Below are positions 26,418-31,972 of a stretch of DNA of 48,290 bases, piece by piece. Within the stretch, counting starts at the first letter, position 1. The number at the start of each line of letters is the position of its first letter. The notes below the pieces were generated by a model, which did not search any database, was not told where the DNA came from, and saw nothing but the letters and a program-made list of their open reading frames with translations. Origin of the DNA: Candidatus Heimdallarchaeota archaeon (GTDB taxonomy: Archaea; Asgardarchaeota; Heimdallarchaeia; Heimdallarchaeales; Heimdallarchaeaceae); assembly GCA_019057815.1 (NCBI GenBank), contig JAHLWR010000026.1, positions 1 through 48,290 on the forward strand, read 5' to 3'. The position numbers and the translations under genes were made by a program.

Positions 26418-27324
26418 TGTAATCTTCCTTAACTAATACCTTTTTTATTATTTCCATTGCTGCTTTCATTCCATCTCCCATTGCAATTGACACTTGTCGA
26501 AAATTGCCTGATTTTACATCTCCAATAAAGTAAAGACCTGAATCATCATTTGGATTTTTATATTGTTGCATACATTTAGAATCTAAGAAGCTGATATTTG
26601 GTTCTCTACCTATAGCTACAAGAATATAATTAGATGTAATTTGCTCTTCTCTTCCTTCATTTAAGATTGTTAAAATTATCTTATCATCTTCTATTTCTAC
26701 TTTCATTGGTTCTCTGTCTTTCAGAAATGTGATATTTTCTTGTTCTTTTACTCTCTCTTGCAGAACTGGTAGACTCTTTGTTTTCTGTTGTCTTTGTATA
26801 ATTGTTATAAGACCCATCGATTTACATAAATTGAGTGCGTAATCATAAGCAACGTCCCCACTTCCAATAATTGTTATTTTTTTATTAGCGATTATATTCG
26901 ATTTTAGGTTGAAGATTTCATAAAAAAGTAGATTCTTTTTCTTGGCTTTTTCTTCTCCCTTAACGTTTAATCTTTTTGGTTTAGACCCTGTTCCGATTAT
27001 AACTTGATCAGCTAATATTCTGCTTTTTGAAGTTATTATTTCATATTCATTCTTTAGTAAAGTAACTTTTTCGACTTCTTCTAAAATCACTTGAACATCA
27101 TTTTTTTCTAATTGTTTTTGAATCAATGTAACATAGTCTTCTCCACTAATTCCTTCAGGAAAACCAAGTAAATTCTCTATTAAGTTCGCATTTTTAATTG
27201 TCCCACCAATATTTTCGCTTAGGAGCGTGGGTTTCATATCTGAACGACTCAGTTGTATTGCTGCTGTAACACATGCTGGTCCCCCACCTATCAACACAAT
27301 CCTAGTTTTCTTATTCTCTTTCAT
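26401..27324 (-). CDS. thioredoxin-reductase-like FAD/NAD(P) oxidoreductase lacking CxxC
   Basis: 'IGGGPA', 'IGTGS', 'IGSGDVA', 'AIGREPN', 'IGDV...RQ...A.GDG'. 'FYEIFN' stands where TrxB has YCxxC. Confidence 0.8.
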   Translation of the reverse strand: MKENKKTRIVLIGGGPACVTAAIQLSRSDMKPTLLSENIGGTIKNANLIENLLGFPEGISGEDYVTLIQKQLEKNDVQVILEEVEKVTLLKNEYEIITSKSRILADQVIIGTGSKPKRLNVKGEEKAKKKNLLFYEIFNLKSNIIANKKITIIGSGDVAYDYALNLCKSMGLITIIQRQQKTKSLPVLQERVKEQENITFLKDREPMKVEIEDDKIILTILNEGREEQITSNYILVAIGREPNISFLDSKCMQQYKNPNDDSGLYFIGDVKSGNFRQVSIAMGDGMKAAMEIIKKVLVKEDYNGTSR

Positions 27325-27964
27325 TCAAAATCTCCTCCGAAGAAAGACATACACCAAAACCGTGTGAAACCGCTCTTATTGTTCCCAGATGAAGTTGTTC
27401 AGTATATGTTGCTGTAGCATCTACAATAAAAAAAGGTTCAAATCCCCGCATAAAAGCTTCCCTTAACGTTGTTTCGCAACAAAGATGAGACATCACTCCA
27501 GTAATCAAGACTTGACTAATTTCACTCTTATTTAACATATTTTCAAGTTCTGTATTCATAAATGCGCTATAATGATTCTTTATTATCTTAGTTCCTTGAT
27601 CAGCTTGTAACTCTTTGATGATTTCAGATTCTTTTTCATCGATTGAAATACTATCCCTCCACCATAATCTCATTAAGTCTTTTTCTTGACCGCTGGTAAC
27701 GTGTCTTGTAAAAATGATAGGTCTATCTAACAATGCCATTTTTTTGATGATTCTTTGTATAGGTTTAATTATGCATTGAACCGAAGGAATGAATGCATGG
27801 GAGTTGTAATCAGTAAAATAATTTTGCATGTCAAGCACTAAAAGAGCTGCTTTCATCAAATCCAATTTGAACATTTTCCGTGATTTGTGTATTTGGCTTT
27901 CTTTTAACCAATAATCAATTTTTTCCTTCCAATTTGATGATGTTAAATACAGTTCTTTTTGCAT
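27311..27964 (-). CDS. isochorismatase-family cysteine hydrolase
   Basis: 'LLVLDMQNYF', 'K..YSAF', 'GV.SHLCCETT.R.AF.RG' (D-K-C triad). Confidence 0.9.
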   Translation of the reverse strand: MQKELYLTSSNWKEKIDYWLKESQIHKSRKMFKLDLMKAALLVLDMQNYFTDYNSHAFIPSVQCIIKPIQRIIKKMALLDRPIIFTRHVTSGQEKDLMRLWWRDSISIDEKESEIIKELQADQGTKIIKNHYSAFMNTELENMLNKSEISQVLITGVMSHLCCETTLREAFMRGFEPFFIVDATATYTEQLHLGTIRAVSHGFGVCLSSEEILNERE

Positions 27965-28132
27965 ATAATCTGATTTATAGATAATCCATTATTGAAAGTT
28001 TTGTTATTAAGAAAATCCTCTATATAGATAAGAATCATATTATTGCAATGTACTGAAAATGGAAGAACAGTATATGAATACTGATAACCTTGCTGTTTTT
28101 ATGAGTTTATAAATGAAATTAAGTATTAAGTA

Positions 28133-30058
28133 TTGATGTCCTCTGTTTCAAAGGTGTCTATATTAGGACTTAGTAGTAAAGTTCTAAGGACATACACCTT
28201 AGGTGTTAAATTTGAAGGTGATAAAAGAACAAAGAGGACAAAAGAGATTGAAGCAAACAAACGCGTAAAAGGTTTACAAGTAAGACAAGAAGACATGATT
28301 TATAATACAAAAACCATTAATACAGCTCTAAATATCGCAAGAGAATTACCAGATAAAGACAGTAAATTTGCACCAGCCGTTATCCAAGAACACACAAAAA
28401 ACTATGCTAACATTGGGAATAGTGCATATTATCAGCTTTTCATTGCAGCTAAAGGTACCATTGATAGAGAAAAAAAAGTTTCTGATATTTTTCAATTATT
28501 ATTAAAATGGAAATCCCAAGCTTTAGAGTGGATTATTTTCGGTAGAAGTCCTAGAGTTGAAAACATTCTGACTTTTCAATGGAAAATAAAGCGAATCTAT
28601 ATCATTAATCTATTAACTAGCTCTCGAAGACAAATAGATAATTTTGTACCTCAGGAAATACACTTCAATAAAAGTCTTCCAAATCTTACTGAAAGAGAGA
28701 TCAAAAGTGCTTTCTCCAAATTCTATCAGAAAAAGTGTAAGGAGTTATCTTTAAAAAAAATGACATCTAAAGAGAAATCATTTCTTGAAAAATTAAAGCT
28801 CTTTGATAATAATCTAGATTTTATATCTTCTAACCTACATGAATGGAATAATATGGAGCATAAATCTCGTTGGCAAAGTCTCAAAAAACTTAGTAGAGGA
28901 ATAGCAAAAACATTTGGTAATGAAAGTAGAAGATTATTCTCTCCTTTAAGATCGATTATACTCTTCGCACTTTCTTCAAAATTAGAAGAAACTGTCTCTA
29001 AAATTATTAAAAATTCTGACCCAAAAAAATGTGTTTCTCCTCCATTTAAAACAAAAAAGAAAGGAAGATTGCCAATAATCCTGTTAATGAAGAAAGATTA
29101 CGTTATTGTAAGACCTGGTAATGCCAAGCAGATGACTGAACTAGTACAAAGAGATGGCAGTTTTGAACTTGGGTTTCCATTAAAAGGTTATTCTAGAATA
29201 AATGGTAATCTAGTATTTCCAAGAAAAGTAAAGGAATATATCAGAAATGGTGCTAAGATAAAATTATTGAAAATTCAACATGGAAAAGCTCCAAGTTATA
29301 AAATCTGTGTGTCTGTGGTTTTGGAAGGATCTAATTCAATGTTTATTAGTCACAAACTTACTAAAAAACTTCTGAAACCAATAAGAACAAACTCTTCAAG
29401 TGTACTAGGTTTGGATATAAATCGTCTTAGTGACTATATTCTTGCATTTTCAAATCAAATAAGAATACCTAAAGAAATTAAGATATTGATAAGAAAATAT
29501 AATCACCTGAACTCAAGAATCATTCCACAGCTTAGTTACGCTTTGAAAAACAAAGGTAGAGATAAGAATTCACATGATTACTGCAAATTGAAAGGTGAAT
29601 TAGACAGGGTTTATTCAAAAAGAAAGAAGATTTTATCTGAAATCAAGAATTTACTACCACATCTGATAGCTGCTGTGTTAATAAAAAGTGGTAGTTGTTA
29701 TCTATGCATTGAAAATCTAGATTTTGATCCTAGAGGAAAAAAGGGGGCTCTTGGGAAAGCGTTTTATTCCATGCCTGATGAAATAGACATTTTCGAAAAA
29801 GCTATATTAATTGCTACAAAAATTTCTGGAAGAATTATTCGCTTAATAAAGGTACCACCCCAAGGCACCAGCACCTATCATTTCCAATGTAGAGGAATTT
29901 TAGATAGAACCAATCATTATTATGATAAAGCTTTGTGTAAGAAATGTGGAGATTATGTTGATACTCACCACAATGCAGCTCGAAATATTAAAGATAAAGG
30001 AGAGCAACTATTGCAATCACTAAATCGTCCCTCTTCGCATGCGAGGGTTACAGAATGA
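28133..30058 (+). CDS. tnpB: large TnpB/Cas12-like RuvC protein (IS200/IS605/IS607-derived RNA-guided nuclease family)
   Basis: N-terminal 'RTYTLGV', RuvC-I 'VLGLDIN', RuvC-II 'CIENL', 'GTS', Zn-finger HxxC...CxxC, RuvC-III 'DTHHNAARNI'. 641 aa, with no transposase gene adjacent. Confidence 0.8.
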   Translation: MMSSVSKVSILGLSSKVLRTYTLGVKFEGDKRTKRTKEIEANKRVKGLQVRQEDMIYNTKTINTALNIARELPDKDSKFAPAVIQEHTKNYANIGNSAYYQLFIAAKGTIDREKKVSDIFQLLLKWKSQALEWIIFGRSPRVENILTFQWKIKRIYIINLLTSSRRQIDNFVPQEIHFNKSLPNLTEREIKSAFSKFYQKKCKELSLKKMTSKEKSFLEKLKLFDNNLDFISSNLHEWNNMEHKSRWQSLKKLSRGIAKTFGNESRRLFSPLRSIILFALSSKLEETVSKIIKNSDPKKCVSPPFKTKKKGRLPIILLMKKDYVIVRPGNAKQMTELVQRDGSFELGFPLKGYSRINGNLVFPRKVKEYIRNGAKIKLLKIQHGKAPSYKICVSVVLEGSNSMFISHKLTKKLLKPIRTNSSSVLGLDINRLSDYILAFSNQIRIPKEIKILIRKYNHLNSRIIPQLSYALKNKGRDKNSHDYCKLKGELDRVYSKRKKILSEIKNLLPHLIAAVLIKSGSCYLCIENLDFDPRGKKGALGKAFYSMPDEIDIFEKAILIATKISGRIIRLIKVPPQGTSTYHFQCRGILDRTNHYYDKALCKKCGDYVDTHHNAARNIKDKGEQLLQSLNRPSSHARVTE

Positions 30059-30165
30059 AATCTGTCAAGTTGTAAAACTTCATAGCATGTGTGCTGTTTA
30101 GAGGACCTTACTGTCCTAAATGAAACTCTTCTGACTTAGGGATCATTATTTACATTATTAATAAA
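30025..30165 (+). ncRNA. putative omegaRNA/reRNA overlapping the 3' end of the TnpB-like gene
   Basis: Consecutive hairpins CCCTC..GAGGG (30029-30047), ACAGA..TCTGT, AAGTT..AACTT, AGCA..TGCT, AGGAC..GTCCT. Possible long-range TCCCT/AGGGA pairing (30028/30142). The position is typical of TnpB RNAs; boundaries are approximate. Confidence 0.55.
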
Positions 30166-30305
30166 CGAAAATATATGGTTTTCTTATTCTCCATTTTTGC
30201 AGTATAATGATATTTGTTTCTCACTAACTGAATAATACCAAGCTTGCTGTTTAGTGGACATTATTATAAGGGAGTGCTTGCCTTACACAGTTTCTAACTA
30301 GTTTA

Positions 30306-31306
30306 ATGGCAATATATTTAGCATATCAGTACACATCAGATTATGTGAAGAAGTTATACATTATCATTGTTTCAATAATCATTCTAGCCTCTCTAATTAG
30401 CCCAGTTCTCTATTTTGTCTTAAAACCCGAGCTGATTCCAATTGTACAACCATCTTTCTTAATTAATGATAGAGAAATTAATGATTTCACGTATCAACTT
30501 CAAGATATAGATATTGACGAGATAGGTAATTCAAAATATGATCTTCTCATTATCGATTATTCCTCTGATGGGTCAGAAGAAGGTGAGTATCCCATTTCTG
30601 ATTTACAGCTCATGAAAGAACCAGAAGACAAACTTCTTCTGAGTTACTTGAGTATTGGAGAAGCTGAAACATATCGTTTTTATTGGGATGAAGTTTGGGA
30701 TTCGAATAATGATGGTATCCCTGATCCTTCTGCTCCTGAGTGGTTAGATGTGGAGAATCCTGAATGGGCTGGTAATTTCAAAGTCAAATATTGGATTAAG
30801 GAGTGGCAGAACATTATATTTGGTTCTAATGATAGTTACTTGGATAGAATAATCAATAATGGTTTTGATGGTTGTTATCTTGATATAATCGATGCATATG
30901 AGTACTATCAAGATTCATTTCCAGAATCTAAACAAGAAATGATGAATTTTGTGGGTAATCTAAGTCTATATACCAAGGCAAAAAAAGTGATTTTTTAGTA
31001 TTTGTTCAAAACAGTGAACAATTGTTAGATAATTCAAATTATATAGATTCAATAGATGGAATAGGAAGAGAAGATGTTTATTACTATGACAATAGTAAAA
31101 ATAATCAAGAAGAAATCGAGGAGATTAAATCTTATCTCGACATAATGTTGTCAGCTGGAAAACCAGTTTTGATAGTAGATTATCCAACCAGAAACTCAAG
31201 AATCTATGATGTTTATCAAAGAGCTTCTGGCGATGGTTTTCTTGCATATGTTGGTCCAAGAGATTTACATAAACTTCGTTATTACGATTTTGCACTTCCG
31301 GATTAG
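30306..31306 (+). pseudogene. MJ1477/TM1410-like membrane-anchored glycoside hydrolase split by a frameshift (ORFs 30306-30998 and 31022-31306)
   Basis: 'YQLQ', 'SYLSIGEAETYR.YW', 'ENPEW.GN', 'GFDG.YLD', then 'QN', 'GIGRED' in the -1 frame. The break is at the A7 run 30980-30986. Likely start is the GTG near 30345. Confidence 0.8.
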
Positions 31307-31386
31307 ATTTGTTTTAGATATCAGTTGGACCTTTTCTGATGATTTCTCTTAATTCTTCTATGTTCACTCTCCAATCGCTATTGTTT

Positions 31387-31779
31387 CTATCCAGTTACTG
31401 AAATATGACCTTGAACTATTTTCCATTTACCTTCAATCTCCCTTAAAACACCAGTTAACCTTGCAGGAATACTTCTCCACTCACCTTCAATTTTTACTTT
31501 AACGTTAACCTCAGCAGCAATCCAAGCGATTATACCATGTGAGTTTATTGTTAACCAGTCATATGTAAGAGAAATCTCTCCATGTCTTTCCTTGTCTTCT
31601 GCTGGTGCATTTTTGTACTCTTCCCATCCTAACCATTTTTCACCTGTACCAAACATTACAAGATTTTCATCTTGTAAAAAAAGGTTAAGATATCTGTCTA
31701 GGTCATCTTTAGGATAAGCTTCTACAAATTCTTTAAAAAATGCTTTTACTTCTGCTTCAACTCGTGGATCATTAATCAT
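31387..31779 (-). CDS. NTF2/SnoaL-like protein
   Basis: 'GTGEKW.G', 'R.TGVL....G.WKIVQGHIS'. GAGG RBS upstream. Confidence 0.85.
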   Translation of the reverse strand: MINDPRVEAEVKAFFKEFVEAYPKDDLDRYLNLFLQDENLVMFGTGEKWLGWEEYKNAPAEDKERHGEISLTYDWLTINSHGIIAWIAAEVNVKVKIEGEWRSIPARLTGVLREIEGKWKIVQGHISVTG

Positions 31780-31972
31780 AAGATTACCTCCTCATAAGGG
31801 ATACTTGAAAGGAGTTATTAAATTTTTATGAGATAAATTGAATCTTCAGTTAAATAGATTTGAATCTAAAAGGTCAGTAAAATATACATATCAATGGTTA
31901 AGAAAAACTGGATCAGAAAGTGTAATCTGATTTGTCATATTTTAAATACTACTTTGAATATTTAATTCTAGT

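Follow-up and report, generated by a model that had tools for sequence, protein, structure and literature searches.

The closest described counterparts of the locus analysed here are the TnpB/OMEGA systems of the IS607 family, compared through the structures of ISFba1 TnpB (8iaz) and ISDra2 TnpB (8h1j). The locus lies in positions 1 to 48,290 of contig JAHLWR010000026.1 of a Candidatus Heimdallarchaeota archaeon, a stretch of 48,290 nt referred to throughout as the window, and centres on a TnpB-like gene at 28133-30058; all features of the element described below are on the forward (+) strand. With IS607-family systems it shares a WED-REC-RuvC-TNB core (Z 12.1-13.2), an RNA scaffold that overlaps the 3' end of the gene, a pseudoknot beside the guide, a guide corresponding to the DNA past the right end, and a serine-recombinase TnpA, which is found in this case in a sister clade. 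It differs from them in that the protein is approximately 240 residues longer, mostly in REC, has His in place of the RuvC-III Asp and carries an HCCC rather than a C4 zinc finger. The clade to which it belongs has no TnpA, occupies one conserved host element, termed E, and has a variant spare copy of E on its downstream side.

TnpB-driven homing and retention of IS200/IS605 elements was reportedly demonstrated by Meers et al. in 2023. The window locus resembles that system in that the guide matches the unoccupied site, and the element would be regained through cleavage and recombinational repair. Unlike IS200/IS605 elements, it has no transposase to create an empty site, appears to address one fixed host target and brings an altered replacement with it, and this pairing of fixed target and replacement copy resembles homing-endonuclease genes and tRNA-targeting integrative elements. 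The TldR proteins, said by Wiegand et al. in 2024 to be nuclease-dead transcription regulators derived from TnpB, likewise have no transposase and a conserved guide with a match near the gene. In contrast to TldR, the window protein keeps its catalytic positions and is enlarged rather than trimmed, and its guide fits distant alleles perfectly but the neighbouring site only imperfectly. An IS607 ancestry has been proposed for Fanzor2. Fanzor (ApmFz2, 9b0l) has the TnpB core in common with the window protein, but its fold agrees less closely (Z 11.5, where TnpB and Cas12f reach 13.2-13.8), the window protein has His in RuvC-III rather than a relocated Glu, and the loci all come from metagenome-assembled genomes (MAGs) of Asgard archaea. 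The long relatives that carry a name are Asgard and include no eukaryotes. The special relevance to Fanzor origins put forward in the original prediction was consequently not borne out: the modelled protein appears no nearer to Fanzor than to TnpB, with no support for a link, and the present evidence has no special bearing on the origin of Fanzor. Type V (Cas12) systems differ in that the window locus has neither a CRISPR array nor cas-like neighbours.

Substitution of the RuvC-III Asp has been surveyed in a census of TnpB and Cas12 proteins, which distinguished six large branches with altered RuvC-III, several of them almost confined to archaea (Altae-Tran et al., 2023; PMC10691335). The largest, RIIIr-4, has exchanged Asp for His, and the authors predicted rearranged-RuvC-III TnpBs to be active, arguing from conservation without an assay (PMC10691335). 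The RIIIr-4, RIIIr-6 and Ser-6 clades share with the window family the Asp-to-His exchange as a clade feature, an archaeal distribution and the lack of a canonical C4 finger. By its description, RIIIr-4 is without a zinc finger and linked to ribbon-helix-helix (RHH) or MazE proteins, whereas the window protein has an HC3 finger and no RHH or MazE neighbour; weak MazE-like matches do occur in giant relatives of the family and recall the MazE-like link of RIIIr-4 (PMC10691335). The altered catalytic site is thus not a novelty in itself, since D-to-H RuvC-III is already catalogued for TnpB clades (PMC10691335), and the family is of a catalogued kind, a His-containing RuvC-III TnpB of IS607 lineage. 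No description of it was found in the literature on TnpB or Fanzor in Asgard archaea or Heimdallarchaeia. What is new at the locus is the TnpA-less, site-specific layout, the fixed guide and the variant replacement target. The cautiously preferred reading, held to be somewhat probable, is that of a TnpB-type RNA-guided DNA endonuclease belonging to a TnpA-less offshoot of a Heimdallarchaeial IS607-like family, which homes to or is retained at E with a guide-resistant replacement.

The 3' RNA, its guide and element E

A structured 3' RNA had been predicted with its end at ~30146 or 30165. The hairpin and a covarying pseudoknot proved real, but the boundary lies at 30092/30093 (± a few bases). 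Conservation across 69 loci is high up to ...TTCATAACGTGCGT and at background from the next base on; the window scaffold terminates in ...CTTCATAGCATGTGT, of which the last base is 30092. The conserved scaffold comprises the 34 nt 3' of the open reading frame (ORF) (30059-30092) together with the 3' end of the gene. Its 3' part spans 30029-30092, the 5' end of the RNA lying further upstream within the ORF. Among the loci, the stop codon falls anywhere from 4 nt past the scaffold end to 89 nt before it, and conservation of the scaffold therefore does not arise from coding.

In hairpin H1, CCCTC (30029-30033) pairs with GAGGG (30043-30047), and the loop (30036-30042) pairs in turn with 30085-30091 to form the pseudoknot. 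Compensatory double changes were found in six of the eight pseudoknot pairs, with 91% of cells paired; none of 500 shuffles was as good and shifted controls were 35-60% paired. The loop and terminus combinations among the loci include ACGCACGT/ACGTGCGT, ACACACGT/ACGTGTGT, ATGCACGT/ACGTGCAT, CGCATAC/GTATGCG and TGCATAC/GTATGCA. A second stem, H2, is formed by ACAGA (30050-30054) and TCTGT (30061-30065). Both H1 and H2 were recovered independently by RNAalifold, and within the window's clade every one of the five H2 pairs shows double changes. A scaffold reaching into the gene end, with a pseudoknot beside the guide, is the anatomy of a TnpB omegaRNA, and the window RNA is a putative member of that class.

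The guide segment, GCTGTTTAGAGGACCTTA (30093-30110), is 18 nt in length and matches the E consensus over the whole stretch. Its first 16 nt, GCTGTTTAGAGGACCT, are identical in L005, the locus of the closest homologue, beyond which the two sequences diverge. The L005 gene has other neighbours than that of the window, and its product shares 68% identity with the window protein at a synonymous divergence (dS) of ~1.5. Although synonymous divergence is saturated at this level, the two loci hardly differ in guide and scaffold. A near-copy of the guide, GCTGTTTAGTGGACAT, occurs 153 nt downstream at 30246-30261, matching at 14 of 16 positions with mismatches at positions 10 and 15, and is one of only two guide matches with two or fewer mismatches in the genome.

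Element E consists of the box TTTTT[TG]CA[TG]TATAATG[AC]AAA, approximately 25-30 variable bases and then ATAA[CG]CTTG[CT]TGTTTAG[AT]GG[AT]CCTTATTGGAAGGGAGTGCTTGCCTTACA; it is a conserved, single-copy, non-coding unit in which a 55-nt conserved core follows a TATA-like box and a variable stretch (window 30185-30287; loci L122-L135). It was found exactly once in 15 of 31 family genomes, the reversed-pattern control yielding no matches, and a SnoaL-like gene is usually located within 1.5 kb of it. The consensus fold is weak and convincing on neither strand. Two haplotypes were distinguished: AACCTT...AGAGG fits the guide, with no mismatch over 19 nt in two genomes (L132, L135), and AAGCTT...AGTGG fits it incompletely.

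A composite arrangement is common to the window, L005, L136 and L137, the last two being relatives fetched from metagenomes. It comprises a left half-E of the AACCTT type (not present in L137), the element, the AGAGG guide, a filler of 70-130 nt and a complete E of the AAGCTT/AGTGG type. In the window, the left flank is the displaced 5' half of E (the E1 copy, 28036-28098), which ends in ATAACCTTGCTGTTT and adjoins host DNA without a break in G001, a genome of the same genus. The filler (30111-30184) cannot be aligned among the four composite loci. It is followed by E2, a complete copy of E (30185-30287) with a promoter-like ATTTTTGCAGTATAATGATA at 30193-30212 and the core AAGCTTGCTGTTTAGTGGACATTATTATAAGGGAGTGCTTGCCTTACA at 30240-30287; the resident variant reads ...AAGCTT followed by GCTGTTTAGTGGAC, and the near-copy of the guide lies within it. 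The element sits exactly between the left part of E (...AACCTT) and the guide-matching right part. The guide has A at position 10 in all composites, and the resident E has T there together with a C-to-G change 4 nt upstream of the target, a base that is the likely position of a target-adjacent motif (TAM). In every composite the guide fits unoccupied E alleles better than the neighbouring E copy of its own locus. A candidate origin of the left flank as a remnant of the 3' end of tnpA was unsupported, tblastn giving no match in the window.

An allele without the element was found in G001, where the contig is continuous across the site and aligns with window positions 26651-28098 (90%; L105 1-1447) and then 30240-31790 (94.6%). 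The jump in the alignment from 28098 to 30240 means that 2141 bp (28099-30239) are absent there. On either side of this segment stands one copy of a 13-nt direct repeat, AACCTTGCTGTTT (28086-28098) on the left and AAGCTTGCTGTTT (30240-30252) on the right, and the two agree at 12 of 13 positions. The empty site, ...ATAACCTT GCTGTTTAGAGGACAT..., matches the guide at 15 of 16 positions. G001, which is 89% complete, contains four copies of the 652-aa type, and an orthologue of the window gene was not found in it.

A decayed composite was also observed in G196 (L124:1300-1400), where the scaffold survives in its 3' part and the guide has drifted to GCTATTTAGAGGTCCT; an AGTGG-type E lies downstream, and tnpB is missing.

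The effector, its active site and its ancestry

The reading frame of the TnpB-like gene is open as originally described and encodes 641 aa from a TTG at 28133, or 640 aa, the length of the database entry, from the probable start, ATG 28136. A TATA-like box, TTTATAAAT (28106-28114), lies ~22 nt 5' of the ATG, is conserved before the gene in both clades of the family and may be its promoter. The ratio of non-synonymous to synonymous substitution rates (dN/dS) was 0.14 against L005 and 0.13-0.18 in all nine pairs compared, including paralogues within the source genome; by this measure the gene is shown to be under purifying selection.

No NCBIfam match was obtained for the 641-aa protein, and Pfam gave a single sub-threshold match, to the Cas12f1-like TNB domain PF07282 (E = 3e-5). 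As this lies below the cut-off, assignment to a family rests on profile and fold evidence. A profile of 65 family members matched the PDB chains of CnCas12f1 (8hr5, E = 6e-8) and ISFba1 TnpB (E = 3e-5). An AlphaFold2 model built from the 65-row alignment had a mean predicted local distance difference test score (pLDDT) of 87 and a predicted template modelling score (pTM) of 0.73; its best Foldseek matches were Cas12f (E = 5e-9), TnpB and other Cas12 proteins. Structural alignment (VIA-align) gave Z 13.8 over 352 residues with AsCas12f (8dzj), Z 13.2 with ISDra2 TnpB (338 of 362 residues aligned, model residues 15-629), Z 12.1 over 329 residues with ISFba1 TnpB and, over 350 residues, the value given above for the mimivirus Fanzor2 ApmFz2. 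The alignments to TnpB and Cas12f indicate that the entire WED-REC-RuvC-TNB core is present. In the model, a WED strand (16-27) is followed by a helical REC (~31-300), the remainder of WED (315-400), RuvC from 424, the TNB zinc finger (583-605) and the RuvC-III helix (611-630). The extra residues relative to typical TnpB are chiefly those of the helical REC of ~270 aa, in agreement with the enlarged REC lobe that had been proposed.

The catalytic residues are as first read: an intact RuvC-I Asp and RuvC-II Glu, His at the RuvC-III Asp position and an HxxC...CxxC finger. The Asp is D428 in GLDINR (codon 29414-29416) and the Glu is E527 in CIENL (IEN/DL in the family; codon 29711-29713), both invariant in 65 sequences. 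The RuvC-III stretch reads VDTHHNAARNI, in which H612 (codon 29966-29968) stands two residues before N-A-A. Its placement at the RuvC-III Asp position comes from HMMER alignment, in which H612 falls onto the catalytic Asp of CnCas12f1, of a second Cas12f (9nzq) and of ISFba1 TnpB; in the profile alignment the family motif 'vnTHxNAAkNIa' is superposed on 'vnADyNAArNIa' of Cas12f and TnpB. The further Asp noted two residues upstream of the His is present as D610 but is not conserved, most family members having Asn. In the zinc finger, H583-x2-C586 ... C602-x2-C605 (29879-29947), C605 is at least 90% conserved and the other three residues do not vary.

The possibility had been raised that close homologues would all have the canonical Asp and the window sequence would be a one-off decay. 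His612 is retained in ~61 of 63 close homologues, the exceptions being one Gln and one frameshifted tail. Among 148 aligned remote representatives plus the query, out of 228 relatives, the triads were D-E-H (73), D-D-H (9), D-E-Q (5) and D-D-D (2). His at the third position is therefore the normal state of the clade, one-off decay is ruled out, and the canonical TnpB triad D-E-D is absent from the window protein as a clade-wide feature. Nucleases of the RNase H fold accept His as a metal ligand, as Argonaute PIWI domains with a DEDH site and certain RuvC resolvases do. As His is tolerated in these nucleases, it is plausible by analogy that the D-E-H RuvC site is catalytically active.

With four remote relatives as the root, the 65 family members fell in a FastTree phylogeny into a 50-locus clade with scattered TnpA genes or remnants and a 15-locus clade without TnpA (Shimodaira-Hasegawa-like support 99), and the window protein belongs to the latter. 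An IS607-type TnpA is found in the former clade. On contig 27 of the source genome, G000, a paralogue is preceded by a gene with a MerR-type helix-turn-helix and a resolvase domain (PF00239, E = 6e-20), an IS607-type TnpA with an in-frame stop. At least 15 of the retrieved loci have this TnpA, complete or almost complete, immediately 5' of the TnpB-like gene, and remnants of its 3' end occur in a dozen more, including the two other G000 paralogues. A left end (LE) beginning AC[CT]GT, ~130 nt before tnpA, is common to 12 full-length elements. No TnpA was found at the window locus or elsewhere in its 15-locus clade, and tblastn detected no serine recombinase matching the family's TnpA in the window; nor was there a CRISPR-like array in its 48,290 nt or a cas-like gene among the neighbours. 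The description of the element as solo, with no TnpA, CRISPR array or cas gene nearby, accordingly holds for the window copy but does not extend to the whole family, whose sister clade has IS607-type TnpA or its remnants.

As a separate observation, the IS607-type TnpA genes beside 652-aa paralogues are interrupted by in-frame stops (L004:764-1360 on G000 contig 27; L026:2041-2607) and the adjoining TnpB-like genes are intact.

Proposed homing at E and alternative explanations

The window element very probably encodes a TnpB of the IS607 lineage with an omegaRNA and an E-matching guide. That it also cleaves and homes is almost evenly poised, leaning slightly towards doubt. Under the preferred reading, the omegaRNA would be excised from the 3' end of the mRNA and the resulting ribonucleoprotein (RNP) would recognise unoccupied E alleles by a TAM within ...AACCTT followed by the 18-nt target. 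Unoccupied E would be cleaved by the His-containing, metal-dependent RuvC site, and repair from an occupied copy would install or restore the element. The spare copy of E would retain host function and escape the guide through its two changes. More tentative still, with doubt outweighing belief by a little more, is the wider proposal of a natural RNA-guided homing element, in which a hard-wired guide lets a TnpA-less TnpB cut unoccupied alleles of one conserved host locus and so spread or persist there, its replacement copy protected by one TAM-side change and one seed change.

If true, this would make TnpB survival without a transposase possible through site-specific homing and target replacement, a condition between selfish retention and domestication, and the same logic would apply to the tRNA-adjacent relatives described below. 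DNA cutting by a His-containing RuvC could be tested directly and simply, because nature supplies the target, a variant that resists the guide and the probable side of the TAM, and the D-E-H site would be shown to be that of a working nuclease. With its enlarged REC lobe and a guide of just 18 nt, this Asgard system would extend the catalogue of compact editors.

Several observations weigh against this reading. The G001 sequence could also be explained by excision from a composite and subsequent deletion between the two 16-nt repeats. Gene order around E is loosely conserved in the family, which makes long vertical inheritance with losses possible. The left-side homology available for homing is short, ~15 nt between distant lineages. 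The copies are old: the best pair shares only 93% DNA identity and no genome contains near-identical copies, which gives no sign of recent bursts. No assay of any D-E-H TnpB was found in the literature. E itself corresponds to no Rfam family and no tRNA, and inspection showed no open frame in it.

An unlikely alternative is that the protein is a TldR-like guided binder or regulator, whose His site does not cut and whose RNP binds E2 just past the promoter-like box and tunes transcription, the mismatch at position 10 limiting completion of the R-loop. A regulator would suit a clade without a transposase and without recent copies, and a guide conserved over long divergence that has a near-match close by, 30-50 nt after a TATA-like box; guide position 13 moreover covaries with the resident E2 in all four composites. 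The D, E and H residues are, however, as conserved as in the TnpA-bearing sister clade, whereas known dead derivatives lose such residues. In addition, the guide matches unoccupied E alleles perfectly and its own neighbour imperfectly in every composite, and the resident copy is also altered at the likely TAM position, a change that would be needless for a repressor. The pattern of guide and target therefore appears to fit a nuclease directed against unoccupied sites better than a local repressor.

Rather less likely again is placement by a recombinase acting in trans, such as a host Xer-type or other integrase, for which the shared core CTTGCTGTTT would serve as dif or tRNA sites do for other integrating elements, with TnpB only retaining the element or playing no role in placement. 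The 12-of-13 direct repeat around the 2141-bp insert would be expected of such an event, the right end of the insert contains a diverged copy of the left half of the target, like the attP of integrative elements, and there are six resolvase-domain matches elsewhere in the genome. Yet the element itself encodes no recombinase and does not have the LE of its TnpA-bearing relatives (AC[CT]GT...), inspection of E revealed no clear inverted-arm architecture, and selection on the guide would be left unexplained.

That the locus is a stranded, functionless relic of an old IS607 insertion, its guide match being flank by construction and its second E an accidental local duplication, is very improbable: the missing transposase, the absence of recent copies and the decayed version in G196 would agree with it, but the ORF is intact with dN/dS 0.14 across saturated synonymous divergence, scaffold and guide are near-invariant and the layout conserved in four lineages, and the tnpB-less relic has drifted.

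Hosts, remote relatives and neighbouring genes

The host, for which an Asgard archaeon had been considered, is Heimdallarchaeial, and the proposal of a TnpB/Cas12-type effector from a distinct archaeal clade was likewise upheld, the clade being essentially Asgard. Among 69 homologues of ~640 aa in the protein database, those that carry a name came from Heimdallarchaeota MAGs, apart from one Thorarchaeota entry. Of 79 loci retrieved from assemblies, nearly all were likewise from Heimdallarchaeota MAGs, one bearing the label Thorarchaeota and a few simply 'archaeon'; single genomes often had several copies. When 251 genomes were sampled across the phylum, strong matches clustered in the host's own family, where 21 of 25 genomes had them, as did 20 of 20 in one genus. 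The source genome (3.7 Mb, 48 contigs) has three further copies, of 652 aa and 42% identical to the window protein. An exhaustive profile search of 1.8 billion representatives yielded 228 relatives of 330 to ~1800 aa; the named long relatives were from Thor-, Odin- and Hod-archaea, and no eukaryotic relatives were seen among the named remote matches. The D-E-H clade is sizeable and appears to be mostly Asgard.

Four giant relatives (P0097, P0110, P0126 and P0132) from Thor-, Odin- and Hod-archaeal MAGs are 1200-1800 aa in length with the D-E-H TnpB-like part C-terminal, and two of them have weak, sub-threshold MazE/AbrB-like matches near residue 650-700.

The genes around the TnpB-like ORF are those for an isochorismatase, a glycoside hydrolase of family GH114 and a SnoaL-like protein; these immediate neighbours showed no synteny with other loci. 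The GH114 gene, 3' of the element, is split into ORFs at 30306-30998 (230 aa) and 31022-31306 (94 aa), and represents either a broken gene or a sequencing error; its relatives are single open frames of 311-360 aa, that of a same-genus genome being 338 aa with 97% identity. No tRNA genes were found in the window or the E loci, and nothing reached the Rfam gathering score in either, relaxed thresholds giving only sub-threshold noise from C/D-box snoRNA families.

The source genome is rich in OMEGA-type elements, with ~35 ordinary TnpB genes (open frames of 400-505 aa) and the resolvase-domain matches mentioned above. Many other members of the TnpA-less clade, and L019 and L021 of a basal branch next to it, adjoin tRNA genes or lie within 80 nt of them (L006, L009-L011, L074, L013, L015, L017-L019 and L021). 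In the basal branch, L019 and L021 have tRNA 3' fragments on the left and L021 also has a whole tRNA gene on the right, an arrangement that echoes the E1/E2 layout of the window.

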